Positions 8,977 to 54,630 of a stretch of 64,000 nucleotides of DNA are shown one piece after another (position 1 is the stretch's first letter; each line of letters begins with the position of its first letter). A program made the translations under genes and the position numbers. Origin of the DNA: Coraliomargaritaceae bacterium (GTDB lineage: Bacteria; Verrucomicrobiota; Verrucomicrobiia; Opitutales; Coraliomargaritaceae); NCBI GenBank assembly GCA_965656495.1, contig CBFHKU010000003.1, forward strand, positions 96,001-160,000, written 5' to 3'. The notes under the pieces are model-generated. The model ran no database searches. It was not told where the DNA came from and saw nothing but the letters and a program-made list of their open reading frames with translations.

Positions 8977-9034
8977 CCCCTCAGTCTTACTCATACTCTA
9001 AATCCTAATCTTAATCCTACTCTTAATCTTAATC
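8977..9034. repeat. Left arm: CCCC followed by nine tandem hexamers (consensus YTAMTC)
   Basis: cccc tcagtc ttactc atactc taaatc ctaatc ttaatc ctactc ttaatc ttaatc, read directly. Confidence 0.9.
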
Positions 9035-9064
9035 CTCCCCCCCCCATCTAAAACAACAGTCCAC

Positions 9065-9463
9065 ATGGCTTCCGCCCTCGATCACGAAAAATTAAAGGTG
9101 TATCAAAAAACCCTTCAATTTATCAGTGAGGTGGAAACGCTGCGAAGCGAAATCCCCAAAGGACACACCGCCGCAATCCATCTCGAACGAGCCGCGACCT
9201 CCATCGCACTCAACATTGCAGAAGGAAATGGTAAATATACCGCCGCAGACCGTTGCCGATTTTTTGATATTGCCCGAGGCTCTGCCACTGAATGTGCCGC
9301 AGCTCTGGACATCCTTAATGCAAAAGCAGTCCTCAGTAATGAGACTACAATTCCCGCCAAGGCCCTGCTTTCTGAAATTGTTGCGATGTTGGTCGGATTA
9401 ATTCGCAGTCAAAATTCTGGACGAACGCACGAACCTCCTCAGCCTTACAATGCAAAGGATTAG
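9065..9463 (+). CDS. Four helix bundle protein (23S rRNA intervening-sequence protein / TIGR02436-like)
   Basis: HEKLKVYQ...LERAATSIALNIAEG..K....RCRFFDIARGSATEC signature; AT-richer than flanking genes. Confidence 0.9.
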   Translation: MASALDHEKLKVYQKTLQFISEVETLRSEIPKGHTAAIHLERAATSIALNIAEGNGKYTAADRCRFFDIARGSATECAAALDILNAKAVLSNETTIPAKALLSEIVAMLVGLIRSQNSGRTHEPPQPYNAKD

Positions 9464-9493
9464 CTTGTGCTTTCTGAATTGTTGGAAAGGTTA

Positions 9494-9551
9494 GAGTGAG
9501 ATTAAGATTAGGATTAAGATTAGGATTAAGATTAAGAGTAAGAATAAGGGG
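9494..9551. repeat. Right arm: nine tandem hexamers (consensus GAKTAR) followed by GGGG, inverted relative to 8977-9034
   Basis: gagtga gattaa gattag gattaa gattag gattaa gattaa gagtaa gaataa gggg; 50/58 positions match the reverse complement of the left arm (hand alignment). Confidence 0.9.
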
Positions 9552-9580
9552 AAGAGGAAGTTTATCATTTATAAAGGCAT

Positions 9581-10765
9581 ATGAAAAATACCGGGCTTGA
9601 TAAAATCCTGGGCCGAATTGAGGATCTCGACTCGGTCAACCTCGGTATTCTCGTCCAGCGCCTCGCCCGCGAGCGCAAACTTCAGGAAACCGTCTTCAAT
9701 ACCATTCAGGATGGCATCCTCGTCATTGATACCGATGGCATCGTGCAATACGCCAACGCCGCCGCCCTCGGCATCATCGGTCTCAAGGAAAACGACATCG
9801 GCACCGCCCGCCTCTGGAAAATGGTGCCCGACCTCGCCCGCTCCATCGACCCGCAAAGCGTGGACGGTTCCCGCGCCGCGAAACCCGTCCTCGCCCGCGA
9901 AGTCGAGCTCACCTATCCCGAACGCCGCTACCTCCGCCTTTATATGGTGCCCATTGCCACCCAGGTCGGCGCGTCCGATAGCGGCGGTTACGTCGTGGTC
10001 CTCACCGACGTCACCGAAGACAAGGTCACCCTCGAAGAACGCATCGAGAGCGAACGCATTGATTCCATCATGCGCCTTGCCGCCGGAGTCGCCCATGAAC
10101 TCGGCAACCCCCTCAACTCCCTCACCATCCACCTGCAACTCATCAAGCGTCAACTCGCCAAACTAGAAGCCGACGCCGGGTCGCCCGCCTCCAAATCCAT
10201 CGCCGATTCCCTCCAAATCTGCCAGGGCGAAGTTTCCCGCCTCGATGGCATCATTACCCATTTCCTCGAGGCAGTCCGCCCACAAAAACCCGAACTCAAC
10301 GAGATCAACCTCCTCGAACTCGTCGAGGAAGTCCTGCGCGTGCAGGAGGCTGAGCTCGTGGACCGCAAGCTCGAGATCGACATCGAGGTCAACGATACCC
10401 CGCCCGCCATTCTCGGCGACCGCGGACAAATCAAGCAGGTCTTTTTCAACGTCACCAAAAACGCCATGGAAGCCATGCAGGCCGGTGGACAACTCCGCAT
10501 CCGTACCGCCCTCGACGACGAATTCCTCACCCTCCAATTCATTGACACCGGTTCCGGCATCGCCGAAGCCGACCTCGCCAAAGTCCTCCAGGCCTATTAT
10601 ACCACCAAAGAAGAAGGCCATGGCCTCGGCATGATGATCGTCCAACGCATCATGCGCGACCACGGCGGACAAATCGGAATCGAATCCCGCGAGGGTGCCG
10701 GCACCGTCATTTCCCTCCAATTCCCCCTCCCGCATCGCCGCACCCGACTCCTCGAAGGCGATTAA
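9581..10765 (+). CDS. PAS-domain sensor histidine kinase
   Basis: PAS ([22 protein letters not shown]), H-box [13 protein letters not shown]-box KNAMEAM, DTGSGI, YYTTK and GHGLGM. Confidence 0.92.
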
Positions 10766-10828
10766 AAACAATTACTTGCGCATAAATGGTTGCATACCGC
10801 CAAATTCTCTTTTTTCTCCTCCGCTAGC

Positions 10829-11986
10829 ATGGCAAACGGTTTTAAAGAAGGAATACTCGCATTTGAAGACGGAACAATTTTCCGCGGACGCGCCTTTGGA
10901 GCCGCCGCCACCAAAACCGGAGAGGCCTGTTTCAACACCAGCATGACCGGTTATCAGGAAATCCTGACCGATCCCTCCTATTTCTCCCAGATCATCACCA
11001 TGACCGCCGTCCAGATCGGGAACTACGGTATTTGCCCCGAGGATGTTGAATCCGATGGCCCCAAGGTTAGCGGCTTCGTGGTGCGTGAGGTCAGCCCCCT
11101 CACCAGCAATTGGCGGAGCAACCAGTCCATCCAGGACTACCTCACCGAAGCAGGCATCCCCGGCCTCGAAGGCGTCGATACCCGCGCCATCACCAAAAAA
11201 CTCCGCGTCGCCGGTGCCCTCAACGCCTGCCTCAGCACCGAAGGCCTCAGCGATGAGGAAGCCGTCGCCAAAGCCCGCGATTTCGGCGGACTCGTCGGAG
11301 TCGATTTTGTCAAGGAAGTCACCGCCGCCGCCCCCTACGATTGGACCGCCCGCGGCGAGCCCTGCACTCCCTTTACCGTCGTCGGTACCGATATAAGCAC
11401 CGCCCCCGTTCCCCAGCAACGCTTCAAAATTGCCGCCCTCGACTTTGGCGCCAAATACTCCATCTATCGCCGCCTCCAACAACACGGCTTCGACGTCCAC
11501 GTCTTCCCCGCCAACACCCCCGCCGAGGCCATCCGCGAATTCAATCCCCAGGGACTCTTCCTTTCCAACGGCCCCGGCGATCCCGCCGCCGTCACCTACG
11601 CCCACGCCACCGTGCGCGAACTCATCGACCATTATCCCACCTTTGGCATCTGCCTCGGGCACCAGATCATCACCCACGCCCTCGGCGCCGAAACCTTTAA
11701 GCTCAAATTCGGGCACCGCGGCGGCAACCAACCCGTCAAGAATCTCGAGACCGGAAAAGTTGCCATCACCGCTCAGAATCACGGCTTCGCCTCCACCAAA
11801 GAAGAACTCGAAAAACACGGCGCCATCGTCACCGAGATCAACCTCAACGACCAAACCGTCGAAGGCCTCCGCCTTAAGGACCGCCCCGTCTTCTCCGTGC
11901 AATACCACCCCGAGGCCGCCCCCGGCCCCAACGACGCCGACCCCCTCTTCACCGAATTCCATCAACTCGTCGCCCAACACGTATAG
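10829..11986 (+). CDS. carA: Carbamoyl-phosphate synthase small subunit
   Basis: [45 protein letters not shown] and [10 protein letters not shown] motifs. Confidence 0.97.
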
Positions 11987-12004
11987 GGTGTGGGTGGCTA
12001 AGGG

Positions 12005-12036
12005 GTGGGAAAGTGCAAAGGTGTGAAAGTGGGAAG
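12005..12036. repeat. Tandem octamer array (GTGKGAAR family) after the carA stop
   Basis: gtgggaaa gtgcaaag gtgtgaaa gtgggaag; same family as 54186-54225. Confidence 0.75.
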
Positions 12037-12464
12037 GTTAGGGAACGTCAAAAGTAACCCACGCGCCAACCAATAGCATGTGTACCAGTGATGCCATTTT
12101 TTAAGGAAACGCATACAGAAGCTTCTTGGCTACGAAGCCTTCATGGTTAGAGCGGTCGATGGATCTGCATGACTTCGGTGCAGGTTTTTGAAAAACCAAC
12201 GGCAACCGAAGCGATAACAGGCATCCCGGTTCCTTTATGGAAGGGAAGCTTGCTTATTCGTTGAACACCCAAGCACAAAGCCCACCTCGAATGTGCGTGT
12301 CCCGGTTAACCGCAGGGTCCAAGCGGAACCCAATCTGCCGGACCGCTGCTGAATTCGGTATGGATGCGACTCCTGCAGCTATGTATTTCAATTTATGACT
12401 CAGCTGAAGCACAATCGCAAGCATCCAGCTTCTGTATTGCCCTAAGGCCAGCTTAGCTGGCGAC

Positions 12465-12491
12465 CGCTAATGGGCGCTGATTTTCGCTAAT
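12465..12491. repeat. Three CGCTRAT units at 10-nt period
   Basis: cgctaat ggg cgctgat ttt cgctaat. Confidence 0.55.
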
Positions 12492-12521
12492 CCTTAAAAC
12501 AAAAATATGAGCGGTTCCCGG

Positions 12522-12663
12522 CTCTGCGTTTTATATTCTAACGCGGAGGAGCTCTCAAACTCTGCGTTTATGATTTAACGCGGAGGAGCGGAGGATCAGA
12601 GGCTCTGCGTTTATGATTTAACGCGGAGGAGCGGAGGAGCGAAGGGCTCTCAAACTCTGCGTT
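12522..12663. repeat. REP-like hairpin array, three full units and one half unit (CTCTGCGTT-loop-AACGCGGAG)
   Basis: Units at 12522-12548, 12560-12585 and 12603-12628, half unit at 12655-12663; linkers made of GAG/CGGAG/CAGAG subrepeats. Confidence 0.9.
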
Positions 12664-12674
12664 GGATAGTTGAC

Positions 12675-12703
12675 TTGCAAATTATTGTGAAATCGCAGAT
12701 AGT
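12675..12703 (+). promoter_or_regulatory. Possible sigma70-like promoter of the TA operon
   Basis: TTGCAA - 17 nt - GATAGT, ending 6 nt before the ATG at 12710. Confidence 0.35.
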
Positions 12704-12709
12704 AAAGGT

Positions 12710-12895
12710 ATGGATGCAATGGAAGTCATCGACCACTTCAAGCGCTTACCTGAAGAAGAACAAGGTAAGGTCGTTGAGTTCATCCGTAAGGATAGCTCTG
12801 CGAAAGTGCGCTATGCCGACGATGAGGCTGCCAAAGCTGCGGGCGAGGCTGTCTTTAATGAACACCCCGAAGTGTTCCGCAAGTTGGCACAATGA
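12710..12895 (+). CDS. Putative antitoxin
   Basis: 61-aa ORF overlapping the toxin gene by ATGA; C-terminal ...EHPEVFRKLAQ resembles Doc-associated antitoxin tails. Confidence 0.7.
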   Translation: MDAMEVIDHFKRLPEEEQGKVVEFIRKDSSAKVRYADDEAAKAAGEAVFNEHPEVFRKLAQ

Positions 12896-13275
12896 GCGAT
12901 CCGGTCTTTTTGACGACCGCTCAGGTAGAAGCTTATCACAGACGAGGCTTGGAGCTTTATGGCGGTTCCGAAGGTCTCCGGAACCGTTCTCTTTTTGAAA
13001 GTGCGGTAGCTCAGGCTCAGAACGTATACTGGTATGGAAATGGCGACCTGTATGACATTGCGGCGGCTTACTGCTACTATATCGCACAAGTCCAAGTGTT
13101 CCTTGATGGGAATAAAAGGGCTGCAACTGCTGCATGCTTGGCCTTCCTGAAGTTGAACGGTGTCAGAACTGATATTGAACTGACGATGCCTCTCTATAAT
13201 GCCTTGATTGATATTGCAGAACATCGCATGGACCGTGACGGTCTGGCGGGCATGCTTCGCGAGTTGCTCACATAG
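12892..13275 (+). CDS. Death-on-curing (Doc/Fic family) toxin-like protein
   Basis: YGGSEGLRN..LFESAV, DL..IAAAY and QVFLDGNKRAA..ACLAFLKLNG motifs; Gln at the His position. Confidence 0.88.
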   Translation: MSDPVFLTTAQVEAYHRRGLELYGGSEGLRNRSLFESAVAQAQNVYWYGNGDLYDIAAAYCYYIAQVQVFLDGNKRAATAACLAFLKLNGVRTDIELTMPLYNALIDIAEHRMDRDGLAGMLRELLT

Positions 13276-13341
13276 CCGCAAAAGGGGGTTAAAGGTGGGA
13301 ACGTTGAACGACGGGCGTTGTTGAGTTGTGACCCTTTGCTG

Positions 13342-13465
13342 CTCTGCGTTTATGATTTAACGCGGAGGAGCAGAGGAGCAGAGGCTCTGCGTTTTATATT
13401 TTAACGCGGAGGAGCGGAGGAGCAGAGGGGCTCTGGAACTCTGCGTTTTATATTTTAACGCGGAG
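13342..13465. repeat. REP-like hairpin array, three units, same orientation as 12522-12663
   Basis: Units at 13342-13367, 13385-13411 and 13439-13465. Confidence 0.9.
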
Positions 13466-13474
13466 GGGCGCGGC

Positions 13475-15052
13475 TCAATTAAGGAGGGCGTTGGATTCGA
13501 GCCAGGTGAGGAAGTTGTCGGTGGCGGCTTGGGCGGTGTCGACGGGGATGCCGCCACGGGCGCGGACTTTTTCGGCTTCATTGGGTTCAAAGGTACGGAT
13601 GATGGCTTTGGCGGATCCGCTGCGAAGGGTGTCGAGGGCGACGCGGGCGTCGCGGCTGCGGCGCATGGAACAAAGCACGACACGGGCTTCGCGGGCATTG
13701 ACCTGTTGGAGGACGCGGGCGTCTGAGCCGTCGCCCTGGAGGGCATGGTTTCCGCGTTCCCGGAGTTGGCGGACCACGGAGGCGTCGTCATCGACCACTA
13801 TAACTTCGAGCCCGTGCTCGATGAGGAATTGCACAGTCTGGCGGCCCGCGCGTCCGTAACCGAGGAGGACGGCGTGATCCTTAAAGGTTTTAAATGCATC
13901 GCTGCGGGCGTAGCGGGGTTTGGGGTGGAGCTTCATGAGTCGCCAGGCGATGGAATCGCGCGACACCAGGGGGGTGAGGGTCATGGTGCCGACCGTGATG
14001 AGGGCGAGCATGGAGAAGAGTTCGGGGCTGAGGTGTCCGGCGCTCATGCCGAAGAAGGCGAGGAGGAGGGAAAATTCACTGGTCTGGGAAAGGAGGATGC
14101 CGGCTTCGAGGGCGGCGCGGGTGGAGTAGCCGAGCCGCTCGGCGAGGAAGGTGACGAGGAGGACCGTGACGAGGATGAGGACCAGAATAAGGACGAGGCC
14201 GTGAACCGCCATGGAGGCGGTGGGGAGGGTCAGGACAAAACCGATGCTGATAAAAAAGAGGGCGAGGAAGAAACCGGTGAGGGAATGGAGCATGCCCCGG
14301 ACGAGTCCATTCATGGGGAAGGCGGAGAGGACAAAGCCCGCGAGGAAGGCCCCGACGAGGTAGGGGAGGTCGAGGAGGTGGGCGATTGCGGAAAAGGTGA
14401 AGAGGGTGGCGAGGGCGCCGAGCATGAGGGTTTCTTCATCGGCGCTGAAGCGACCGCAGACCCAGGGGATAAGGCGTCGGTGGAGGAGGAGGGCGGCGGC
14501 ACCGAGGGCGAGGGCTTTGAGGAGGGCGGTAGCGCAGAGGAGGGGTCCGCCTGCCACCGCTTGCAGGCCTACGATCACGAGAATGATAAAGACGTCCTGC
14601 ATGAGGAGAACGCCCACTACGAGGCGTCCGTAGGGTTCAAAGAATTGGCGGCGTTGCTGGAGGTGGCGCACCGCCACGAGGGTAGAACTGGCGGAAAGTG
14701 CCGAGCCAATATAGAAAGCGGTCATCCAATCATAGCCGAGCCACCGCGCGGTGAGGCTCCCGGCGAGACCCAGCAAGAGGAACTGGGTGAAGGCTAGGAT
14801 AAGAACCGGTCGGGCGCGGCCTTTGACGCGGCGTGGGCTGAGGTCGGCGCCGGCGGTAAAGACGAGGACCGCGAGTCCGAGCTCGATGGTTTCACGCACA
14901 AGGGCGGGATCGATCTGGATTTGAAGGGCATCGGCGAGGAATTGGAGGCCGACCCCGCCGAGCATGAGGAGCGGGATGACGGGAAGTCGCACGAGCTTGG
15001 CGAGGCCAAAGGCGAGCGCTGCCACAAGGAGGAGGATGGCGTAACCGCTCAT
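13475..15052 (-). CDS. CPA2 cation:proton antiporter with TrkA-N (KTN) domain, Kef-like
   Basis: Many TM helices; SASSTLV, LLMQD, GAFLAG, SQTSEFS; C-terminal GYGRAG; ATG 15052 overlaps the upstream stop. Confidence 0.9.
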
Positions 15053-16737
15053 GACTGCACGAGCCCCTCCTTGAGCAGGATTTCTTTTTGTGCAATAGTA
15101 CCGTCGGCGGAGGGCATCAAGAGGTAGGCGGTTTCGAGGTCGAGCAAGTCGTCCACCATGGAAAGGTCGAAGGCATGAATGGCGCAGCGCACCCCAAAGG
15201 TTTTGCAACGATAGGCAAGGAGGTGATTAACGTCCTCGATTTGAAGAGCGGAAACCACCAGGCGGGCGCGGCGCAGTCCGATTTCCTCCACCACCGATTC
15301 GTATTCAACACTGCCGATAAAGGTTTCGGCTGCGCCGAGGCCGTCCAGTTTGCGGGGGTCGGTATCGACTGCGAGGACCGCTTGCCCTCTGGCGGCGAGG
15401 GCGGTTGCGATGGCGCGTCCCATCGCGTTCATGCCGACTATAATGCAATGCCCGCTGCGGGAATCCTCTGCCTCGGTGAGGGTCTTTTGTTTACCGCCGA
15501 GGAAGCGAAGGACGCCGCTCTTTTCGCACACCCGGTAAAGTGCGTTCGCGTGGAGGATGAGGTAGGAAGAGACCGCGATTGTGACGAGCCCCACCATCCC
15601 GCCGAGGGTGACGAGGGGCCCGCCTATGAGTCCGGAACTGGCACCGAGTGCGAGGAGGATGAAGGAGAATTCACTGACCTGCCCGGTGGCGATGGCGGTA
15701 TGGAAGGCGGTGTGAGCATCAAAGCGCATCCGGGTGAGGATTGTAAATACGAGGAGTGGTTTTATGAGGAGCACGAAAACGCTGAGGGCGAGCGCCGCGA
15801 CCCAGACGGTTCCGAAGTCCTGCACTTCCATGCGGATGCCGAGGGTCACGAGAAAGACCGCGATGAAGAAAGTCATGAGGGGGTGGAGGCGGCGATGCAG
15901 GTCTTCGTGCATCGGCAATTGCGCCACTGCGACGCCGGCGAGGAAGGCTCCGATTTCGAGGGAGAGATGGAATTGGTGAGCGAGGAGGACGATAAGGAAG
16001 CACCAGCAAAGCGCCCAGATAAAGATGGTATCGGGGGAGTTGGCGGCCCATGCAAAGGGGCGGGGCAGGAGGTAACGCGCTGCCGCAAGCACCACCAAGA
16101 GGAGTAGTGCCATCCCACCGAAGGCGACCCCAAGGCTTTTGAGGACGGGGCTCAGTTCAAAACTGGCACCGCTCCCGAGGCCGCTCAGGACCGTGAGGGC
16201 GAGGATTACGACAATGTCCTGCCCGAGGAAGAGGCCGACTGCGAGGCGGGCGTAGCGGCGGTGCATGTGCCCCTTTTGGTCGAGCAATTTAATGACGACA
16301 ACGGTGCTGCTGAAGGTAACGGTCGCGGCGAGGAAGACCGCGGGGAGCCATTCAAAGCCCAGGAGGCGCGCCACTGCAAATCCGCCAAGGGCGGTGAAGC
16401 ATACCTGAAAACCGCTCAGGAGGAGGGCGGCTTTTCCAAGGTCCTTGATTTTCCCGAAGCTCAGTTCGAGGCCGACGAGGAAGAGGAGGAGGGCGATGCC
16501 GAGTTCCGCAATGAGTTCGAGGGAATGATCGATCGCAACCAGCCCGAGGGCGGGGCCGAGCAAAAGCCCCGCGAGGAGGTAGCCCACCAGTGACGGCATC
16601 CCGATTTTTTTCCCGAGGAACGCAAAGGCGGTCGCCGCGAGGATGATGTAACCGAGGTCGAGGAGTAGGGTGACTTCTGAAAAACCGTCCACGCATTCAT
16701 TGAGAGGCGTATTCCCGGCGGTGGCAATACCACGCAA
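15049..16737 (-). CDS. CPA2 cation:proton antiporter with KTN domain, Kef-like paralog
   Basis: [31 protein letters not shown] and GQVSEFSF motifs; C-terminal GMNAMG; start uncertain. Confidence 0.9.
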
Positions 16738-16768
16738 GGTCTGGGGTAAAAATTTTCAAGCGCGCGAT

Positions 16769-18070
16769 TTATCGGTGGTCTTGAAGGTTTGGGGTTGGGT
16801 CGGATGCCGAAAGCCCTTGTATCCGGCTCATGATTTCACCGATGAGATAAATCGAGCCGGTCACGAGAATGGTTGCTCCGGGTTGTCCGGCGGTGCAGCA
16901 GTCTTTTGAAGGAAAGAGTTGAGCGAGGGTGTCGTCGCGGACGGGGATGGGGTAAGGGTCGGGCAGGTGGCGGCGGAGGCTTTGGGTGGAAGTGGCGCGG
17001 GGCTGGCTGGGCTCTACGAGGATGAGCTCGCGGGCATGGGGTGCGACGGTCTCGATGAGGCTGCGTCCGCGCTCCTCGCCAAGGGTGCCTGCGATGATGA
17101 TGGGTTTTTCTTTGAGCTGTTGCAGGTTTTCGGCGAGGTAGGCGGCGCCCTCGGAGTTGTGGGTGGCGTCGAGAATGAGGCTGCGATCGGGCAGTGCGAT
17201 GGTTTGCCAGCGGCCCGGCCAGTTTACTTGTTGTAGGGCGTTGTGTTTAGAAATGGGAAATCGTTGTTGGAGGATTTCGGTGGCATAGAGTGCAAGGCCG
17301 GCATTGTGCTGTTGGAACCTGCCGTGGAGGTTGGTCTCAGGCAGTGTTTCGGGATCGGGGAAACGTTCCGCAAGGGTATAAACGGGGCTTTGGCGTTCCT
17401 TTGCGATGGCGCGTAATGCGGCTTCGGCCTCGGGGGGAAGGAAACCAAACAGGACCGGTTTGTGGGGTTTGATGATGCCCCCTTTTTCGCGGGCAATCGC
17501 GCTCAGGGTATCGCCCAAAAGGTCGCAATGGTCGAGGCCGATGGAGGTGATAATGCTGAGTTCGGGGTCGACCACGTTGGTGGCGTCGAGGCGTCCGCCG
17601 AGTCCGGTCTCAATGAGCGCGAGATCGACTTGTGCTTCGGAAAAACGAAGGAAGGCCATGGCGGCCATGTATTCAAAAAAGGTGGGGCCGAGTTCGGGGT
17701 TTTCTTTGGCAAGGGTTTCGGCGAGGGGACGCATCCGGGCGGTGTATTCCATTAGGGCTGCTTCCTGCAATGGTTGACGGTTTACCTGAAGGCGTTCCCC
17801 AAGGTGCAGGAGGTGGGGAGAGGTAAAGAGCCCGGTCTTGTATCCATTGTCCCGATACAAAGCCTCGAGGATGGCACAGACGGAACCTTTGCCATTGGTG
17901 CCTGCGACGTGGATGAGGGGGAAGCGTTCCTGGGGGTTTTTCAGGCAGGCGAGAAAGGCCTGCATGCGCTCGAGGCCGTATTTGGAGCCTTGGTTGCGAA
18001 GGGCGTAAAGGAAATCGCAGGTCGCGGCATAGGGGTTTGCCGTGCTGCTGGAATCATTGGCCTCGTGCAT
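16769..18070 (-). CDS. folC: Folylpolyglutamate synthase / dihydrofolate synthase
   Basis: [45 protein letters not shown] and GSIYLIG motifs. Confidence 0.95.
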
Positions 18071-18097
18071 TGCTTTGCCGGAGCCGGCCGTTGGGGT

Positions 18098-18958: not shown

Positions 18959-18981
18959 TATTTTAAGGAGGGAAGTTGTTG

Positions 18982-19713: not shown

Positions 19714-19719
19714 TGGTCT

Positions 19720-20073
19720 TTAGGCCACTCTGAGAGCTTTGGCGAGTTGTTGTAGGCGTTTATCGTGGGTCCACAGATTGCAGGCATGCAGGCGGCATGC
19801 CGCAAGCAGATGGGCATCAATCCAGCCTATGCCGCGACCCATAAGGCGGTGCTTTTCGATAAGGTAGAGGACTTCCTCGTTTTCGGCAGCAGGGATTTGC
19901 GGGAGCGCCTGAAAGAGGTGCATTAATGTTTTGCGTTGTTGTAGGTTGCCGAGGGCGAGTTCGCCCAGCACGTGGGGGTGCATATAAACCATCCCATTGC
20001 CGAGTGCTTCGACCAGTTCCGCGTTTTTTCGCCGGAGGTGGTCAATCCAGACGGAAGTATCAACGAGGGTCAT
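19720..20073 (-). CDS. vapC: VapC-family PIN-domain toxin
   Basis: LVDTSVWIDH, HVLGELALG, IGWIDAHLLA and LWTHDKRL motifs. Confidence 0.92.
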   Translation of the reverse strand: MTLVDTSVWIDHLRRKNAELVEALGNGMVYMHPHVLGELALGNLQQRKTLMHLFQALPQIPAAENEEVLYLIEKHRLMGRGIGWIDAHLLAACRLHACNLWTHDKRLQQLAKALRVA

Positions 20074-20293: not shown

Positions 20294-20296
20294 CGA

Positions 20297-45226: not shown

Positions 45227-45231
45227 TTCCA

Positions 45232-46230: not shown

Positions 46231-46235
46231 ACGCC

Positions 46236-47135
46236 ATGAATCGCTCCTACGATAAAATTCTTTTAGTCGTCGGTCTGTTGGCGCTTGTTGCCAGCACCCT
46301 CTTTTATTTTCTCAGCGGTTCTCCGCAGGCCGCGGAATCCGTCCCGCCGGTTGAGCCGGTTGGCGCTCTCTATGCGCCGATACCCACTCCGAAAATGACA
46401 TTGGTCGATGCCGTCTGGCCGGAAGCCGGCGAGCAATCCACCGGATGGATCTACGATGTCTTCACCCCGCCGAAAATTTATATCAACCTCGAGACCGGTG
46501 AATGGGTCAGCGAGGGCTGGAAGCCGCCTCCGCCACCCGAGCCCTTTGGTCTCTATCTCGCAGAATTGGAACGGGCGCGTTACCGCATTCAATTGTTGGG
46601 TTATATTGAAGAGGATTTCAAGGACGCCAGTAAGAGCCTTCTTTTGATGGTGGATCTGGAATCAGACAAAAACCTGCGGGTGCGGGTCGGCGAATCCGTT
46701 GAAGCGAGTGACTTTGAAGTCATTGATTTTAGCATCGAACGCGTATTCGGCGACGACGGCAGTATCACCAAGCGTGCCACCGCTACTATTATGGATTCGC
46801 GCAGTGGTGAAACGCTTGAGCTGACTCACGGTCAGCCCCTCTATACCGATGGGGTAGTGATTCTACTGCGTTCTGAAGAAGATCCTGCGCTCGAATGGCG
46901 TCCCGAAGCGGTTGGGGCTACCCTTCAAAATGAACGCGGCAGCTACAACCTTGCGGGCATTGATTTCGAGGCCGCAACTTTAACGATAGAAAAGACTTAC
47001 CCCGATAGTGAGCGTGAAGCCGAGACTCAAACCCTTGCGGTTCAAGTAGCGGACAGCACCGATGCCATCGAAACAGAAAATAACGAATCCGCCGACGCGG
47101 AACCTGAAACCACCGTCTTTGACGGAATGTTCTAA
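46236..47135 (+). CDS. Pilus-system protein (Amuc_1099-like by position)
   Basis: N-terminal anchor (SYDKILL); lies between the Amuc_1100-like gene and the secretin. Confidence 0.55.
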   Translation: MNRSYDKILLVVGLLALVASTLFYFLSGSPQAAESVPPVEPVGALYAPIPTPKMTLVDAVWPEAGEQSTGWIYDVFTPPKIYINLETGEWVSEGWKPPPPPEPFGLYLAELERARYRIQLLGYIEEDFKDASKSLLLMVDLESDKNLRVRVGESVEASDFEVIDFSIERVFGDDGSITKRATATIMDSRSGETLELTHGQPLYTDGVVILLRSEEDPALEWRPEAVGATLQNERGSYNLAGIDFEAATLTIEKTYPDSEREAETQTLAVQVADSTDAIETENNESADAEPETTVFDGMF

Positions 47136-47189
47136 AATATACAAAAAACATAATTGCCTCTCATTCATCTTTAAACGCTAATTCAAATT

Positions 47190-49769
47190 ATGAAAAAATA
47201 CGTCCTCGCTAAAAAAAGCCTGCTCGCGGTCCTTATGGCCGGTCTGATGACGGCATCATTCATTTCCTTACCCAGCGCAGCCATTGCGCAAAGTGCGTCT
47301 GAAAAGGTCCGCATCATGGCAGAGGCCTTGCGTGCCCGCGATTCAGGTAATCTTGCTCTGGCTAAGGAGAAAGCGGAGGAGCTCATACGCCTCGTGCCGA
47401 ATGACACCAACGCCCAGCGCGTCCTGGCATCCATCAACAGCGAGATGGAGCGCCGTGATTCCGGTGAAGCTCTCTATGGAGCGACCACCTTGCCTGCCAA
47501 CGCCGCTGAGGCGGATGCCGGTTCGGTTGCGCTTGCCGCGCAAGCCGAAGCCGATCGCCTTGCCGAGGAAGCCGTTGCCGCACAGGAAGCGGAACGCCTT
47601 GCCGCCAAGGCCCGCACCGAAGCACTCCTCAAGGAAGCCAAATCGCTTGAGTCCGCAGGGGACTACGAAGGGGCCCGCGCTCAGCTCGATGAATATTTTG
47701 CTGCAGGCGCCAATTCCCGCACCGCCCGCAATCTTGATGCCAAACTCGAGCGGATTGCCAACTCGCCCGCTGGAGTTGAAATGGCTGAAGTCAGCCCCAA
47801 GTTTGTTGCTGACAGCGAAATTGTTGAGGATCTCCTTCTTAAAGGCCGCGCCCAATTCCTGAACGGTGACTACGATGGCGCTGCTGCTACTTTCAAGGAA
47901 GTCGAGGCCCGCGCTCCCAACAATTCCGAGGCGAAGCTCTACTCTCAGCGCATCGCCCAAGTGGTGAGCGCGATTCATAAAGCCAATCTCTACAAGACCC
48001 GTGAGCAAATGCTAGCGGAGGTCGATCAGCAGTGGGAGCGCCCCAAGGTCTTTGACATCTCCGCCTCCGACGCCGCTGCCGATGGCGGTGACAGCAGCAC
48101 CCAACGCAAGCTCAACAGCATCGTTATTCCTCAGGTTAACTTCTCCGGAATGGAGCTCACCCGTGTGATTGAGACCCTCTCGGAACTTTCCCTGCAATAC
48201 GATCCCGCCGGCGAGGGCGTCAATATCGTGGTGCTCTTTAACCCAAACAACACCAACCCCAGCGTCAATATCAGTCTCCGCAACCTCAGCCTCGACCGCA
48301 TTCTTCAGTTCGTCACCCAGCAGGTCAATTTCACCTATGAGGTCGGTTCGGATGCGGTCACGGTGGCACCCAGCTTCGGCCCGGAAGGCGGTCAAAGCAC
48401 TGTCACAGAGTTCTTCCCCATCTCGGCAGGTACCGTGATCCGCCTCACCGGTTTTGGTGACAGCGCCGCTTCCGCCGGGCCGGTTGATCCCTTTGCGCCG
48501 GTCGCAAGTTCGAGCAGCGGTCCTTCTGCCAACGAAAAGACCGAAGCCCTGCAGTCCTTCTTCCAGCGCGCCGGGGTGAATTTCGAGCTTCCCGGAGCGA
48601 GCCTTGCCTTTGACGGCGAACAGCTCATCGTGACCCAGACCCGCCAAAACCTCGACCGGATGCGCGCCATTCTTCGTAATTACAGCGAGGTCAAGCAGGT
48701 CGAAATCGAGGCGAAATTCCTTGAAGTCGCCCAAAGCGATCTCGAGGAGCTCGGCTTCAACTGGAAGGTTACTCAAGGAGGCTCTACCGTCGCGGATTTA
48801 GGGCTACGATCCATTAATTCAGCATTCTCAGTAGATACAAACACTAGTAGTATCAGCATCAATCGCCCCGCTAACATAGAAAGAGACGGCTTTGGAAGCG
48901 TAGTGTCAGAGACTGAAGAACTGAATTTAGTAGCTCCGGTTACTCCGCCTGTATTGCCGCAAGCTCTGGATTACGCTTCGAATGTGACTGCCAGCGCTTT
49001 TAGTAAGACCGGCCTAATACAATTCAATAATTATGACTTGGATCTGGCGATTCGCGCGCTCTCGCGGAAGACCGGTAGTGATTTAATGAGCGCCCCCAAA
49101 GTGACCGTCCTCTCTGGTAAGCGAGCCACTATTACGGTTGCGCAAGAACTTCGTTATCCTGAAAGTTATGGAGATATAGAAGCGCCTCCGCCTCAATCAT
49201 CTCGAGATGGAACAGGCAGTGGCTCCATCGCCATCACAGCCGGTACTCCTGAGGATTTTACTGTTCGCAATGTGGGTGTGGAGTTGGCCGTGACTCCAAA
49301 TGTGGAAAATGACGACACCATAAGCCTCGTGCTTGAACCCAAGGTCACCGAGTTTGAAGGATTCGTAGAATATGGTGGTCCCAGTGTGGCTGTTACCGGC
49401 GATACTACCGTTACGGTGCCATCTGGATTCTTCCAGCCGATCTTCTCGACTCGAGAAATTTCCACGGAGGTGACTATTTTTGATGGTGCGACTCTCGTGA
49501 TGGGTGGCCTCACCCGCGATGAGGTCAAGAGCGTGAACGACAAGGTGCCGGTGCTCGGTGACATCCCGGGCGTGGGTCGTCTCTTCCGCTCGGAGGGCGA
49601 GACCCGCCAGAAGCGCAATCTCCTCATCTTTGTGACTGCAAATCTTGTGAGCCCCGGCGGTTCGCTATCTCGCCAGAGCTATGACAACGCCAAAGCTAAC
49701 GAACTCTTTCAAAATCCAATTATCATGACCCCTTCAGGAGCGGTCAACCGCACCATAGAAGATAACTAA
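47190..49769 (+). CDS. Outer-membrane secretin with N-terminal TPR (PilQ/GspD family, Amuc_1098-like)
   Basis: QVEIEAKFLEV, LMSAPKVT, VGVELAVTP, DGATLVMGGL, DKVPVLGDIP.VGRLFRS and LLIFVT motifs. Confidence 0.93.
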   Translation: MKKYVLAKKSLLAVLMAGLMTASFISLPSAAIAQSASEKVRIMAEALRARDSGNLALAKEKAEELIRLVPNDTNAQRVLASINSEMERRDSGEALYGATTLPANAAEADAGSVALAAQAEADRLAEEAVAAQEAERLAAKARTEALLKEAKSLESAGDYEGARAQLDEYFAAGANSRTARNLDAKLERIANSPAGVEMAEVSPKFVADSEIVEDLLLKGRAQFLNGDYDGAAATFKEVEARAPNNSEAKLYSQRIAQVVSAIHKANLYKTREQMLAEVDQQWERPKVFDISASDAAADGGDSSTQRKLNSIVIPQVNFSGMELTRVIETLSELSLQYDPAGEGVNIVVLFNPNNTNPSVNISLRNLSLDRILQFVTQQVNFTYEVGSDAVTVAPSFGPEGGQSTVTEFFPISAGTVIRLTGFGDSAASAGPVDPFAPVASSSSGPSANEKTEALQSFFQRAGVNFELPGASLAFDGEQLIVTQTRQNLDRMRAILRNYSEVKQVEIEAKFLEVAQSDLEELGFNWKVTQGGSTVADLGLRSINSAFSVDTNTSSISINRPANIERDGFGSVVSETEELNLVAPVTPPVLPQALDYASNVTASAFSKTGLIQFNNYDLDLAIRALSRKTGSDLMSAPKVTVLSGKRATITVAQELRYPESYGDIEAPPPQSSRDGTGSGSIAITAGTPEDFTVRNVGVELAVTPNVENDDTISLVLEPKVTEFEGFVEYGGPSVAVTGDTTVTVPSGFFQPIFSTREISTEVTIFDGATLVMGGLTRDEVKSVNDKVPVLGDIPGVGRLFRSEGETRQKRNLLIFVTANLVSPGGSLSRQSYDNAKANELFQNPIIMTPSGAVNRTIEDN

Positions 49770-49793
49770 TCATAGGAATCTTTTTGAAAATAA

Positions 49794-49830
49794 AGCCCTT
49801 CTGGCTTTGGTCAGGGGGCTCCTGTTTTTA
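49794..49830 (+). terminator. Possible intrinsic terminator after the secretin gene
   Basis: Imperfect hairpin agcccttctgg...tcagggggct followed by cctgttttta. Confidence 0.45.
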
Positions 49831-49870
49831 TCTTTGAAATAAAAAGTTATGTAGGTATAATGTATTTAAT

Positions 49871-52800
49871 ATGAAATTTAAAAAATATCATTTCGGGGTT
49901 TTCTCTATTTTATTGATCGCAATCTTTGTTGTCAGCTTATCCCTTTTTGAAAATTCCAATGATCTGCAAAAAGACTCAGGCGAGAGCACACAATCCTCGA
50001 GCACTTTGCCAAATGAAAATTCAGAAAATGAATGGAATGAGGCTGGGACATCGAATTTAAAGCCAGTGACAGCAGACAATGATGCGCTGACAGATGAAAG
50101 TCCCGAGTTTGAGAAGCTTGTCACAAATCCCCTTGAGGTTGCGCGTAAACGGTGGTTGGAGGAGAAAATTATCAATAAAAGTGAGGATAATGGCTACTAT
50201 CGCACTACCTTTTACAAAGCTCATGATTTTAAATATTCGAAGATACGTGTTGATGAAACTTACGACTTAAACCCTGATACAAATTCGGAGGCGCGATTAC
50301 TTTCACGCGCTGCGTATGTGGCCGACCATTTTCTTATTCGACTCCGCAAAGATCAGGAAGGCCTTGTCGATGCAATGCTGGCAAAATTTCCGGAACTTAA
50401 AATACGAAAAGAACTCGATACAAATGAGCACGTGTTGCTGGAGTTTGACTTAAATCACTATGACATTGATCTCTTTAACTTTTGGTCGGCGCGGCTTCGC
50501 GCCTACGGACTAAATGCGGAGAAGGATTTTATCACTAGTGCTTCGCAGGCCACACCTTTTGATCCTGGTTTTGCCCAGCAATGGGCACTGCATAATACCG
50601 GTCAGGATGGTGGTACTGACGATGCAGACATTGATGCGATCGAAGCATGGGAAATACAACAAGGCAGCTCTGACGTCATTGTCGCTGTGCTGGATAGCGG
50701 TGTTGATTTGGATCATGTGGATCTTGTCACCAATCTTTGGACTACAACGGTAAACGGAAACATCATACGTGGTTACGATTTTGTGAATGGTGGCACCAAT
50801 CCAGAAGACGATCACAATGCAGGGCACGGCACCCATGTGGCGGGTATTATAGGTGCTAAGCCGAATAATTCACGCGGCATTGCCGGAGTAAACTGGAATG
50901 TTCGAATCATGCCGATTAAGGTGTTAAATGCGAACAATGTAGGGACTACTTCTGATGTAATCGCTGGTATCAACCGAGCGGTCCTATCCGGAGCTAATAT
51001 TATCAATATGTCTTTGGGTAGTGTTGGCCCGGGGAGTAATGATGATTCGGATTCTTACTATTACGCTTTAAAACAAGCGCGTGACCATAATGAAAATGGG
51101 ATTCTCGTAGTGGCTTCCGCAGGAAATGGTAATGGCTCCGACAATGACACTTTTCCCAGATATCCCGCTTCTTATGATTTAAACAACATCATTGCAGTGG
51201 GTTCATCGGATGATGATGATGCTATGGCTGGGCATTCAAATATTGGCGCGACATCCGTAGATCTCGTCGCACCGGGCGAAGAGATCTACAGTACGCTACC
51301 AAACAACGAGTATGGCGATTTGACTGGCACCTCGATGGCGGCTCCTCATGTCGCCGGTGCGGCGGCTTTACTCCTGGCGGAAGACCCAAATCAGAGCTAC
51401 GAGGATTTGCGCACACGCATTTTGAATTCAGTTGATAAGAAAGATGCTTTTAAGGATGTCACGGTGACGGGGGGTCGCTTAAATTTAAATAATGCATTAG
51501 CCGCTTATGGCGGCGCGCAGGTACAAGCAACAAATATCATTTTAACGCCACTTGGTAATAATGATGACTTTTGGACCGAAGGGGAGCCGTTGCAGATAGA
51601 TGTTGGTATTAAAAACTTTGGTGGTGGTAACGCGACCAACATTGTGATGAATCTGGAGATTACTCAGGGAGGTAATTATGCGACCATAACATCAGCTGCT
51701 ACCTCGCCCATTAACAGTATAGCAAACATGGCACCTAACCAAGAGGCCTACCTCTCAGATGCATTCCAGTTGACTGCAGGCAATTTAGGGGACTTTGATT
51801 TCGAGCAGGAGGTTGAGATAAAGCTCACGATAAGTTGCACCGGTGGTCTAAGTACAATAGCGTATAAAGACGCTGTGATATACCAGACTGCTTCACTTTC
51901 TGGATATGTCTTCGATGGTGAAGATGGGACTACGCCCATCGCTGGCGCTACCGTTAAATTGAGTGCGAATTTATCAGCGCTGGGAAATATTGAACTTGAG
52001 GAAGAGACTGCAGCTGACGGATCCTACAATTTTTCACTATTCACAGGCTTGGTTTCTGTGAACGTTGAGGCCGTTGATTATGAGACTTCTGCCACCAAGG
52101 TGTTCGACTTAACGCCAGCGGATCCAGACCAAACGCATAACTTTGAACTAGGGGTGAGTCGCTTTGCGGTGCGTACCCCAACCATTGAACTCACGATTCC
52201 GCGCGAGACGACGCAGCGTGTCCCTGCATTGATCGAAAATACCGGGACATCGCCAGTGCCACTTTTCTTTAATTCGCAAGTTTCAGAGTCTAACAACTTT
52301 TATATTGGTCAGCAGCTTTTTGGATTGAAGGGAGTCGGCACAAACACACCCACTTTGGTTTTGATTAATCAATATTCATTGCAAGCAAGCGAGGAGATTT
52401 CTTTAAATCTGCCCGATGGCCATTTCGCTGTTGATGTAACATATTTTCAGGGTGGCGTCTGGATCTTGACTACGAGTGATACTGGAGCTGCTGCTCTGGT
52501 CGAGTATAGCGGAGAAGATTTTACATTTTTGCGGCAAGTTGATTTGGATATCGCCAATACGAGTGCGGTCTCAATCGAGGGATTACTGACGATTCCCTTC
52601 CCGGATACGGATGCCGAGAGCGGAAGGACGGAAGTTTTGGGGCTCCTTGTACGTCGAAGGCTCTTCTTTTTTGATCCTTTTCTCTACCGCGTGAACCCCG
52701 GTGCCATTGATAGGGCAGATCTCACTATTTCTGTTGCTGAAGTAAATGTTAATTTCCTAATTTTCGGCGATAGAAGCTTCTATTTCGGAGCCTATGGCGG

Positions 52801-53707
52801 CGAGCGTGATTCATTCTTTTACGGTCAAGGCAATACACTTTCTGAGTGGGAGGTGACTGGTGAAAACAACTTAACTAACGATGGTGGCTTTCAATGGCCT
52901 GCCTTTATGGCAAATGATACGGGTATAGAGGTCCCAAGTACAGACGTTCTTTCTATTTGTTACTTTAATGGTACTTCTAGTCTTTATGTATTGATGGGTG
53001 GGTCTGTGAATAATCTACTCAAAGTGAACTGGGATGACTCACGAGTGACTAATATTTATGATGCGCCGAGCGGCTTAGAGCGTCTAACCGCCTCTCAGTC
53101 ACAAATAAATATTCCCTGGCTCAGCCTTTTGAGTGATGCAGGCAGTGTTAATCGAGGCGAAACCAGCGAGTTGCCGATGAGGATTGATACAAATACGCTT
53201 GAAGATGGAGATGAGCGAACTGGATATGTCAGAGTTCAATCTTTGGAAAATAATGCTTACGAATTGGTAACGGTCAAATTAACGGTTGGTGCCTTGGGCC
53301 TTGATCCCTCTTATGTGGCGTGGTATCAGAGCTTCTTTGCACGAGATCCTCTGGCAAGTGGCATGAGCTATGATTCGGACAATGATGGTATTGCGAATGC
53401 TTTGGAATATGTGATCGGAACTAACCCTGCCGTGATTGATCCAAATCCAGAAGAAGTCGGTGTACCCAAGGTCATGGAAGATCCCGATGATGGCAATATA
53501 TACATGAAATTTAACCGTCGCGCTGGCTTGCCGGATGGCGCAGTGGAAATTCAGGGGAAAGCCAACCTCACCGATGATTGGCAAAACCTGGTTGAGGGAA
53601 CGGATTATGAAATAATTAAGAAGGAGACTGTCGATGGCATCGATAGATTGACAATCTCAACCCCTTTTACCAACTCGGCATTTTTCAGATTATTGATTTC
53701 TCTTTAA
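49871..53707 (+). CDS. Large S8 (subtilisin-like) serine peptidase
   Basis: Catalytic triad motifs VAVLDSG, GHGTHVAG and GTSMAAPHVAG; N-terminal anchor; carboxypeptidase-regulatory-like segment; DSDNDG motif near the C-terminus. Confidence 0.93.
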   Translation: MKFKKYHFGVFSILLIAIFVVSLSLFENSNDLQKDSGESTQSSSTLPNENSENEWNEAGTSNLKPVTADNDALTDESPEFEKLVTNPLEVARKRWLEEKIINKSEDNGYYRTTFYKAHDFKYSKIRVDETYDLNPDTNSEARLLSRAAYVADHFLIRLRKDQEGLVDAMLAKFPELKIRKELDTNEHVLLEFDLNHYDIDLFNFWSARLRAYGLNAEKDFITSASQATPFDPGFAQQWALHNTGQDGGTDDADIDAIEAWEIQQGSSDVIVAVLDSGVDLDHVDLVTNLWTTTVNGNIIRGYDFVNGGTNPEDDHNAGHGTHVAGIIGAKPNNSRGIAGVNWNVRIMPIKVLNANNVGTTSDVIAGINRAVLSGANIINMSLGSVGPGSNDDSDSYYYALKQARDHNENGILVVASAGNGNGSDNDTFPRYPASYDLNNIIAVGSSDDDDAMAGHSNIGATSVDLVAPGEEIYSTLPNNEYGDLTGTSMAAPHVAGAAALLLAEDPNQSYEDLRTRILNSVDKKDAFKDVTVTGGRLNLNNALAAYGGAQVQATNIILTPLGNNDDFWTEGEPLQIDVGIKNFGGGNATNIVMNLEITQGGNYATITSAATSPINSIANMAPNQEAYLSDAFQLTAGNLGDFDFEQEVEIKLTISCTGGLSTIAYKDAVIYQTASLSGYVFDGEDGTTPIAGATVKLSANLSALGNIELEEETAADGSYNFSLFTGLVSVNVEAVDYETSATKVFDLTPADPDQTHNFELGVSRFAVRTPTIELTIPRETTQRVPALIENTGTSPVPLFFNSQVSESNNFYIGQQLFGLKGVGTNTPTLVLINQYSLQASEEISLNLPDGHFAVDVTYFQGGVWILTTSDTGAAALVEYSGEDFTFLRQVDLDIANTSAVSIEGLLTIPFPDTDAESGRTEVLGLLVRRRLFFFDPFLYRVNPGAIDRADLTISVAEVNVNFLIFGDRSFYFGAYGGERDSFFYGQGNTLSEWEVTGENNLTNDGGFQWPAFMANDTGIEVPSTDVLSICYFNGTSSLYVLMGGSVNNLLKVNWDDSRVTNIYDAPSGLERLTASQSQINIPWLSLLSDAGSVNRGETSELPMRIDTNTLEDGDERTGYVRVQSLENNAYELVTVKLTVGALGLDPSYVAWYQSFFARDPLASGMSYDSDNDGIANALEYVIGTNPAVIDPNPEEVGVPKVMEDPDDGNIYMKFNRRAGLPDGAVEIQGKANLTDDWQNLVEGTDYEIIKKETVDGIDRLTISTPFTNSAFFRLLISL

Positions 53708-53713
53708 GATTTT

Positions 53714-53742
53714 AAAGGCCCGCCATCCGGCGGGCCTTTTTT
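53714..53742 (+). terminator. Intrinsic terminator
   Basis: Perfect stem AAAGGCCCGCC-atcc-GGCGGGCCTTT plus a T-run, just after the S8 stop. Confidence 0.9.
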
Positions 53743-53774
53743 ATGTCTGTCAAAAATAGACCTTCGCCCGCGAC

Positions 53775-53798
53775 CTTCCCACTTTCGTACTTTCCTAC
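53775..53798. repeat. Octamer array, reverse orientation of the GTGKGAAR family
   Basis: cttcccac tttcgtac tttcctac. Confidence 0.6.
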
Positions 53799-53858
53799 CT
53801 ACAACCCTCATCTCCGTTCTTGTTTTTGAGCTCCGGCGGCTTTATGCTGGTCGACATC

Positions 53859-54173
53859 ATGATCGAACTGGTTAAAAAATCAATGTTGGCGGGCTTGGGA
53901 CTCGCCGTCGTGACGAAAGACAAAGTGCTGGAGTCATTGCATGAATTAGTGGAGAAGGGGAACCTCTCCAAAGAGGAAGCCGCCGCGATGTCGGAAAAGA
54001 TCGTGGCAGCGGGCGAGGCCGAAACCGAGAAGGCGAAGGTCGAGGCGAGTCAGCTCTTCAATCAGCTCCTACAGCGCGCCAATGTCGTGACCAAGGATCA
54101 ATACGACGCCCTCGCGGCGCGGGTCACGGAACTGGAGGGGCGCCTGCATAAGGAGTTTCCAAACGCTGATTGA
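53859..54173 (+). CDS. Phasin-like / PHA-granule-associated family small protein
   Basis: KK.MLAGLGLA..TKDK....L.ELVEKG.LS.EEA and VT.....L..RV..LE pattern. Confidence 0.75.
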   Translation: MIELVKKSMLAGLGLAVVTKDKVLESLHELVEKGNLSKEEAAAMSEKIVAAGEAETEKAKVEASQLFNQLLQRANVVTKDQYDALAARVTELEGRLHKEFPNAD

Positions 54174-54185
54174 GCGGCGTTTGGA

Positions 54186-54225
54186 GTGGGAAGGTGTGAA
54201 AGTATAAAAGTGGGAAGGTGTGAAA
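54186..54225. repeat. Left arm: five tandem octamers (GTGKGAAR)
   Basis: gtgggaag gtgtgaaa gtataaaa gtgggaag gtgtgaaa. Confidence 0.88.
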
Positions 54226-54244
54226 GCTATGAGGGTAAAATATC

Positions 54245-54595
54245 ATGAGTGATTTTGCAGAGCGGTTTGAGGATCTGCGCATTTGGCAGGAGGCGCGTGG
54301 TTTGGTGAATGCGATTTATGAGGCGATGGGCGAGTGTCGGGACTATGCCTTTAAGGATCAAATTACACGGGCGACAGTCTCAACAATGAATAATATTGCT
54401 GAAGGTTTTGAGCGCCGCTCTTCGAGGGACTTTGGTCATTTTTTGGACATTGCGAAAGGTTCTGCCGGTGAAGTTCGAAGTATGCTTTATCTCGCGGAAG
54501 ACCTGAAGCTAATCGGTTCAGCCCTTTCCAAGAATTTAAGAGAAAAAGCACGCGTACTTTCTGCGGGGATTGCTGCCTTTCGCCGCAAATTATAA
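54245..54595 (+). CDS. Four helix bundle protein (23S rRNA intervening-sequence protein / TIGR02436-like)
   Basis: RFEDLRIWQEA...DYAFKDQITRATVSTMNNIAEGFER....F..FLDIAKGSAGEVRSMLY signature. Confidence 0.92.
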   Translation: MSDFAERFEDLRIWQEARGLVNAIYEAMGECRDYAFKDQITRATVSTMNNIAEGFERRSSRDFGHFLDIAKGSAGEVRSMLYLAEDLKLIGSALSKNLREKARVLSAGIAAFRRKL

Positions 54596-54598
54596 AAC

Positions 54599-54630
54599 CT
54601 TCACACTTTCAAACCTTTCCACCTTCCCAC
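54599..54630. repeat. Right arm: four tandem octamers, inverted relative to 54186-54225
   Basis: cttcacac tttcaaac ctttccac cttcccac. Confidence 0.85.

Follow-up and report, generated by a model that had tools for sequence, protein, structure and literature searches.

Why small accessory genes of a bacterial chromosome should sit between arrays of short repeated words, with no mobility enzyme encoded beside them, is the question raised by a 64,000-nt stretch of contig C3 (positions 96001–160000; hereafter the window) from the 2.06-Mb genome of a Coraliomargaritaceae bacterium. A first-pass annotation of this DNA had described three modules, two genes for four-helix-bundle proteins and a Doc-type toxin–antitoxin (TA) pair, as the repeat-bracketed cargo of one system spanning 8977–54630. 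Our analysis resolved the span into three separate loci: the two four-helix-bundle genes do stand between inverted repeat arms, but the Doc pair lies between direct copies only. We read each four-helix-bundle gene with its two inverted arms of about five words as a selfish cassette acting at the DNA level, whose product, a predicted pentamer, likely recognises its own arm, and we put the probability of this joint reading at about one half.

Two four-helix-bundle genes between inverted word arrays

Gene 1 occupies the space from coaBC to the gene of a PAS histidine kinase, with a third-position GC content (GC3) of 0.44 against 0.74–0.75 in its neighbours; gene 2, also with a GC3 of 0.44, occupies that from a phasin-like gene to ubiB (Table 1). 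Both cassettes are located between protein genes and not inside an rRNA gene. The arms of cassette 1 pair in inverted orientation over 62 nt (85% complementary) and those of cassette 2 over 34 nt (82%). Both window proteins exceeded the curated family cut-offs (72.5 and 94.5 bits against 24; 77.4 and 101.3 bits against 33.8), and their mutual identity of 28%, together with the 6-mer and 8-mer words of their arms, bears out the earlier description of divergent paralogs carrying different arms.

Of 18 proteins encoded near the three loci of the window and scanned against family profiles, none matched a transposase, reverse transcriptase (RT) or recombinase family, in agreement with the first-pass view that a mobility enzyme is lacking in cis. 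A profile scan found no Y1 domain in the cassette genes, no diversity-generating retroelement (DGR) RT adjoined the four-helix-bundle genes, and Rfam and PADLOC returned no match for the cassette genes or the window. Comparison with empty sites in congeners, three for cassette 1 and one for cassette 2, showed no target-site duplication, the sites having diverged. Cassette 1 is directly preceded by a TTGTCA hexamer common to congeners (8970–8997; empty sites L045–L047) and perhaps lies within a promoter spacer, the promoter-scan match being at chance level (one promoter-like site overlapping the left arm seen, one expected by chance).

All four repeat alphabets reported for the window were recovered far above the expectation from 100 Markov shuffles (6-mer arrays, 2 seen versus 0.0 expected; 8-mer, 4 versus 0.04; CGCTRAT, 1 versus 0.0; AACGCRGAG, 13 versus 1.3). 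They had been seen only beside the modules, but two lone 8-mer arms lie elsewhere in the window, and a motif scan of the genome outside long genes returned 214 arrays at 66 loci, the majority of them gene-less. The genome holds four PF05635 genes, three of them armed. The fourth four-helix-bundle gene (C3 59880–60222, L003) has decayed arms and lies between two gene fragments, which are presumably the remains of a broken rfbA-type gene.

Inverted arms and clade-specific words across the family

The family sample comprised 127 non-redundant near-full-length members out of 140 matches, drawn from 30 loci, 80 further ones among the matches listed and the junction loci; 106 weaker matches lie outside it, and the sample leans to strong matches. 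At a match score of at least 26, inverted arms flanked 101 of the 125 members with both flanks, as opposed to 2 of 298 control genes of similar size, and a direct-orientation match of at least 26 was found in 7/125. Inverted arms are the normal layout of the family, and the enrichment around PF05635/TIGR02436 genes that the first-pass annotation had proposed is thus present.

The words differed with the protein. With clades assigned from a quick tree, arm-word similarity was 0.64 for genes of the same clade at the same site and 0.02 for different clades at one site. The phasin–ubiB junction was followed in 49 distinct metagenomic junctions, obtained from 80 loci after removal of duplicates and of 24 loci without ubiB: clade-13 genes carried the 8-mer in 14/14 cases and clade-9 genes a CAAC 7-mer in 10/10, the remaining junctions being deletion relics and empty sites. 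Relatives beyond the family provide the more stringent comparison. The best 80 of gene 1 (46–78% identity) came from Verrucomicrobiota, Planctomycetota, Lentisphaerota, Kiritimatiellota, Thermodesulfobacteriota, Bacteroidota and others. Arms were detected at 66 of the 74 relatives with full flanks, and a TCNTAA-type word in at least three units, with its polarity kept, was present in 53/74 left arms and 63/74 right arms. These loci fell into 63–64 neighbour clusters, the largest of 5–6 (a singleton means that no shared neighbour was detected). Over several phyla and about 60 sites, the word goes with the clade of the protein, in line with the co-variation of protein and repeat unit proposed earlier, which we observed within the family, across phyla and at the phasin–ubiB junction.

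Word abundance and gene-less copies

Abundance of a word in a genome went with presence of its clade. Among 101 family genomes, at least 12 matches to the 6-mer were found in 17/18 genomes with clade 7 and in 8/83 without; four of these eight retain a relic at the site, and in the sole clade-7 genome poor in the 6-mer (G089) the gene is divergent and its arms are short. At least seven matches to the 8-mer were found in 7/9 genomes with clade 13 versus 7/92 without. The cross-pairings were weaker (5/9 versus 20/92, and 4/18 versus 10/83). Independent pairs on a kinase tree of 30 genomes agreed with the link between 6-mer and clade 7 in five cases and opposed it in none, with two ties; the 8-mer control on that tree showed no trend.

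Inverted 6-mer doublets also occur as gene-less copies in genomes that have the matching clade: 20 hand-picked stretches (G007–G010 and others) held 16 hairpins, with loops of 9–37 nt. Gene-less copies in the source genome are mostly single arms inside mosaics, many of which also carry a GTRG-footed repetitive extragenic palindromic (REP) sequence. Here the orphan arms of two systems are stitched into REP mosaics. The second system, parallel to the first, consists of GxxExxY nuclease-family genes, whose arms are built of three units. The genome encodes five full-length GxxExxY genes and two fragments; arms of this type start with a TTAAC-like foot, and 20/28 contain three units. Because the word follows lineage across phyla and gene-less copies abound, the predicted pentamer likely recognises its own arms.

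Nature of the arms and of the predicted pentamers

The model of protein 1 (pLDDT 90) superposed on 2GSC with an rmsd of 1.2–1.6 Å and also matched BT_0352 (2RLD) and Avd (TM 0.7), and the gene 2 product matched 2GSC (XCC0516) by sequence. PDB entries 2GSC and 2RLD contain five chains each. XCC0516 is called a pentamer in the literature, and two reports on Avd (bioRxiv 10.1101/2023.10.23.563531; PMC10053308) describe a pentamer whose five protomers all touch an RNA stem-loop, the crevices that separate the protomers holding flipped bases. By analogy, the window four-helix-bundle proteins are predicted to be pentamers. The number of words per arm had a mode of 5 in clade-7 arms, gene-less hairpins and source-genome arrays (22/52), and arm length divided by period had a median of 5.1 (79 cassettes). 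Recognition of each arm by an oligomeric protein, as the first-pass annotation suggested, would be consistent with this count and with the pentameric homologues.

The first-pass annotation had also allowed for handling at the RNA level. The window cassettes do fold as RNA (z −5.3 and −2.0), but mismatches between sense-strand arms in 99 cassettes comprised 142 G·T and 175 A·C, with A·C ahead in 11/18 clades; tRNA acceptor stems, which replaced a terminator control that was too small (16 hairpins), gave 16 G·T and 0 A·C. In 29 6-mer arm pairs, in-register matches of unit variants numbered 43, compared with 40.4 ± 5.3 across loci and 35.6 ± 4.9 in shuffled order, register uncertainty in periodic sequence limiting this test. 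With no G·U bias and no in-register compensation, each arm resembles an array of sites in its own right and not one half of a selected helix, which weakens the RNA-level proposal.

Gain, loss and exchange at fixed junctions

At the coaBC–kinase junction, the gene was present at 12 of 30 loci, with a frameshift in one copy and a contig break in another; four held relics, 12 were empty, one had GxxExxY-type arms with a REP and one lacked coaB. The 30 loci of the phasin–ubiB junction comprised seven with clade 13, six with clade 9, three internal deletions, three gene-less hairpins, ten empty sites and one incomplete locus. Frameshifted or internally deleted cassettes that keep their arms were seen at L044 (G097), L059, L071, L080, L091, L102, L391–L393 and L435. 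Damaged cassettes of this kind are steps from a full cassette to a gene-less hairpin.

Sequencing data pointed to a second allele at cassette 2. Run X15 contains, besides the window allele (depth 106), a 517-nt contig (depth 12) in which 54176 is connected to 54650, and in run X12, from a separate study, the loose ends at 54176 and 54650 show GTTG/CAAC 7-mers; runs X5 and X9 contained the window allele alone, and a scan of Joint Genome Institute (JGI) metagenomes for the alternative allele found nothing. We read the alternative 7-mer allele as whole-cassette exchange among close strains.

Two further candidate events were considered. Re-acquisition of cassette 1 was suggested by the kinase tree, on which G000 and G097 are surrounded by congeners with an empty site, but grouping gene 1 with the same-site genes of the family was not rejected by an approximately unbiased (AU) test (p 0.56), so that either loss or regain may account for the pattern. 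Joints in run X4 skip gene 1; other letters lie between them and their sides are about 30 nt long, and we take them for gene-less hairpins at other loci and not for excision.

The Doc pair and the carA–kefC repeat island

The carA–kefC gap is convergent and holds the Doc pair between two direct blocks of 44-nt units (local-alignment score of the flanks, 174 direct versus 31 inverted). These CTCTGCG/CGCGGAG blocks are three-unit GxxExxY-type arms, and the identical word occurs upstream of a GxxExxY gene on contig C8. The CGCTRAT unit in the same gap is dispersed in the genome, and its three-unit design resembles GxxExxY arms. The 61-aa open reading frame (ORF) upstream of doc had no NCBIfam family match.

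Doc was not found in six congeners, and the four readable carA–kefC gaps among them have other contents. None of 23 scorable loci of Doc homologues was bracketed by such flanks, and among 20 PIN genes two had direct repeats and none had inverted flanks above a score of 28. TA modules are not generally arm-bracketed. Given the direct repeats here and the armless homologues, the Doc pair is a passenger within a repeat island or mosaic and stands outside the cassette design, contrary to the initial view that it was cargo like the four-helix-bundle genes.

Table 1. Coordinates of cassettes, arms and repeat-island features in the window
Feature	Position	Strand	Remarks
Cassette 1 left arm	8973..9036	+	Tandem TCNTAM 6-mers, 8 units here (family mode 5)
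Four-helix-bundle gene 1	9065..9463	+	132 aa, clade 7; TIGR02436/PF05635
Cassette 1 right arm	9494..9555	-	6-mer array, inverted copy
Lone 8-mer arm	12002..12038	+	Orphan with the cassette-2 word, directly after carA
Hairpin and three 10-nt CGCTRAT units	12438..12511	+	About 20 further genome matches
Left block of ~44-nt tandem units (CTCTGCGTT ... TAACGCGGAG x up to 3)	12520..12663	+	GxxExxY-type arm derivatives
61-aa ORF upstream of doc	12710..12895	+	Putative antitoxin, from position only
Doc-family toxin gene	12892..13275	+	TIGR01550; inside tandem array
44-nt unit block	13340..13470	+	Direct repeat right of TA pair
Lone 8-mer arm	53773..53800	-	Upstream of phasin-like gene
Cassette 2 left arm	54183..54227	+	Five 8-mers, RGTRKGAA-type
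Four-helix-bundle gene 2	54245..54595	+	116 aa, clade 13; TIGR02436/PF05635
Cassette 2 right arm	54597..54633	-	Inverted 8-mer array

Several observations touch this island and its surroundings. A non-periodic unit at 12050–12161 has about six more genome copies, frequently next to an 8-mer arm, and the carA–kefC gap of L105 and L107 (G100 and G098) carries an AT-rich ORF of about 200 aa at the place of the Doc pair. The lone arm upstream of the phasin-like gene differs in unit count among strains and is missing in congener G098. PIN/VapC matches number 20 in the genome, one of them in the window (19720–20073), indicating a high TA load. Third-position G/C skew is C-rich to the left and G-rich to the right of repeat islands for genes on either strand: across 59 array loci genome-wide it was −0.24 left and 0.005 right for plus-strand genes (−0.06 overall) and 0.14 and 0.49 for minus-strand genes (0.26 overall), and the same pattern appears at 10832–15052 in the window (carA, kefC-like). 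The skew could mark repeated repair synthesis starting at the islands. The sequencing runs that best cover the window DNA are marine, and no DUF559 gene was found in the genome. An Amuc_1098-like secretin encoded by the source DNA and the named relatives of gene 1 indicate a member of the Opitutales (Verrucomicrobiota).

Proposed life cycle and competing explanations

In our preferred reading, a cassette of gene and both arms fills a gap between two co-oriented genes, and the pentamer would bind its own arm, probably in the form of DNA, each subunit taking one word. Such binding would keep word and protein matched and may help arm pairs to spread. Movement would most likely proceed by host recombination, with no catalytic role for the protein: whole cassettes would be exchanged through the homology of the flanking genes, would shrink by internal deletion, and might seed new sites through arm-directed recombination. 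The cassette would persist through purifying selection (median dN/dS 0.13 over 74 non-independent pairs), and in this genome REP mosaics may spread orphan arms further. The architecture, the clade-specific words at many sites and in several phyla, the purifying selection, the changes at fixed junctions and the gene-less arm pairs are observed; the arm binding, the pentameric state, the choice of DNA over RNA and the movement we infer.

A number of results count against this reading. Arms are weak or absent in 24/125 family members, including one of the four in the source genome, and the five-unit count is loose (interquartile range [IQR] 4.3–6.4; cassette 1 has 8–9 units); automatic counting with a position weight matrix (PWM) gave a median of 3, although it undercounts clade 7 too. 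Genes of the same clade at other sites had a median word similarity of only 0.14, with 26% above 0.3, and clades within the family are site-bound (clade 7, 13/13 at coaBC–kinase; clade 13, 7/9 at phasin–ubiB), so part of the co-variation is plain co-inheritance. The abundance thresholds were set after the counts had been seen, the arms of the cassette itself enter these counts, and many of the genomes are incomplete; the independent-pairs comparison (p 0.0625) cannot reach significance. Both neighbours were co-oriented in 93/107 cassettes compared with 172/299 controls under a rough ORF rule, the RNA folding of the window cassettes points the same way, and Avd, which shares the fold, binds RNA. 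The joint of the alternative cassette-2 allele has 30 letters per side, so that other organisms are possible sources, and what was seen of this allele covers its two ends. Since the protein has no known catalytic function, the seeding step is left unexplained.

Three other explanations account for parts of the data. The cassettes might be an mRNA version of the intervening sequences (IVS) of rRNA, in which RNase III cuts the arm stem and the pentamer binds the RNA arm, to regulate either the expression of its gene or how the host operon is processed. The precedent is the Coxiella 23S IVS (PMC4990558), which carries a member of this protein family, has heptamer repeats ahead of its ORF and forms a 28-bp stem that RNase III cleaves; the window cassettes fold and their genes are co-oriented in operons, the genome encodes RNase III (rnc), Avd binds RNA, and an exact 184-nt gene 1 contig in a metatranscriptome gives a weak hint. 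The RNA runs X19 and X20 contain too little of the window to reveal transcription or transcript ends. We nevertheless consider this explanation unlikely: besides the absent G·U excess and in-register compensation, lone arms are common, arrays are enriched in convergent gaps (24/232, against 35/1099 co-oriented and 6/230 divergent), and the spread of gene-less copies would be left unexplained.

A distinctly smaller chance attaches to the arms being passengers copied by REP-associated tyrosine transposases (RAYTs) and their REP doublets (REPINs), or by other small transposons, with the four-helix-bundle protein uninvolved. The search for enzymes co-occurring in the genome did yield two Y1/RAYT-type transposases in trans, the sole RT being a UG13b-type defence RT (C13 32796–34223). 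The Y1 gene on contig C9 is flanked by the GTRG-REP, which has 156 genome copies, and scores below the NF047646 cut-off of 80 (50.3); the second gene (C15 9088–9684, L013) passes it (91.4) and has its own REP family in long tandem arrays. Furthermore, 45/52 6-mer arrays lie within 300 nt of the GTRG-REP, frequently via a similar junction. However, the 6-mer is abundant, with clean gene-less hairpins, in genomes without a match to the C9 REP (e.g. G007–G010, G043 and G078), and it tracks clade 7 even among genomes with a Y1 match (at least 12 matches in 14/14 with clade 7 versus 6/28 without). G039 and G040 have 34 and 24 6-mer matches and no Y1 match at 1e-15, the window has no REP, and 0/36 CGCGGAG-type arrays lie near one. 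Copying by RAYT/REPIN probably explains only the secondary mosaics of this genome. We hold it to be about as improbable, finally, that no recognition exists and that slippage and gene conversion make the arms, which would be co-inherited with a weakly beneficial small gene. Unit number does vary between strains, clades of the family keep to their sites and words shift with protein divergence, but a degenerate non-coding 6-mer that keeps its polarity over about 60 sites, several phyla and proteins about 50% identical, with a modal count of five, is hard to maintain without selection.

Relation to known systems

Short tandem words in intergenic regions, often in inverted pairs, are also seen in the short tandemly repeated repetitive (STRR) sequences of cyanobacteria. 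For the Xanthomonas GGGAATC and Nostoc heptamer repeats, which share this arrangement, PMC4692102 proposes G-quadruplexes, which the window 6-mer cannot form; the terms 'four helix' and 'intervening' do not occur in its main text. The rRNA IVSs, to judge from two reports (Coxiella S23p, PMC4990558; rRNA insertions of the candidate phyla radiation [CPR], bioRxiv 10.1101/2024.02.27.582315), likewise place the same family inside inverted ends and occur in a scattered, site-bound manner, with heptamer repeats before the Coxiella ORF. In contrast, the window cassettes lie between protein genes, their ends are imperfect word arrays without an RNA-helix bias, their genes are under purifying selection and gene-less copies have spread genome-wide.

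Descriptions of RAYT, REP, REPIN and bacterial interspersed mosaic elements (BIMEs; PMC3116915; PMC3733652) similarly feature a single-copy gene between inverted cognate repeats, dispersed intergenic gene-less doublets and mosaic clusters. Unlike these, the cassette gene has no HUH/Y1 domain and the arms are periodic words, not GTAG-footed palindromes; the true Y1/REP pair of this genome is separate and mixes with the arms. DGR Avd (PDB 4DWL, 8UB7) has the same fold and is a pentamer that reads bases between protomers, whereas no RT lies beside the cassette genes. Our literature search found no description of such cassettes outside rRNA; subscription papers were mostly not covered and supplements lay outside the search.

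Implications

Structures have been solved for PF05635, a very large family of which, to our knowledge, no function is known, and we likewise know of no established origin for the short periodic intergenic repeats of many bacteria. The present data link the two, and each protein gains a specific candidate ligand. A broader possibility, which we find doubtful but worth stating, is a new minimal class of selfish element in which a ring oligomer would read an array at one word for each subunit (five in four-helix-bundle pentamers and three in GxxExxY nucleases), pair the two inverted arms and bring about their recombination or their copying into new sites; were it true, dozens of protein–word pairs would have diversified as an orthogonal code, and PF05635 and the orphan 6–11-nt intergenic repeats of many bacteria would both be accounted for. 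With their 6-mer and 8-mer arms, the two proteins of the window form a ready orthogonal pair for binding tests of cognate against non-cognate arms. If the pairing is real, nature would have provided in this family a library of small nucleic-acid binders that are programmable, and housekeeping operons would contain recombination hot spots that stem from it.

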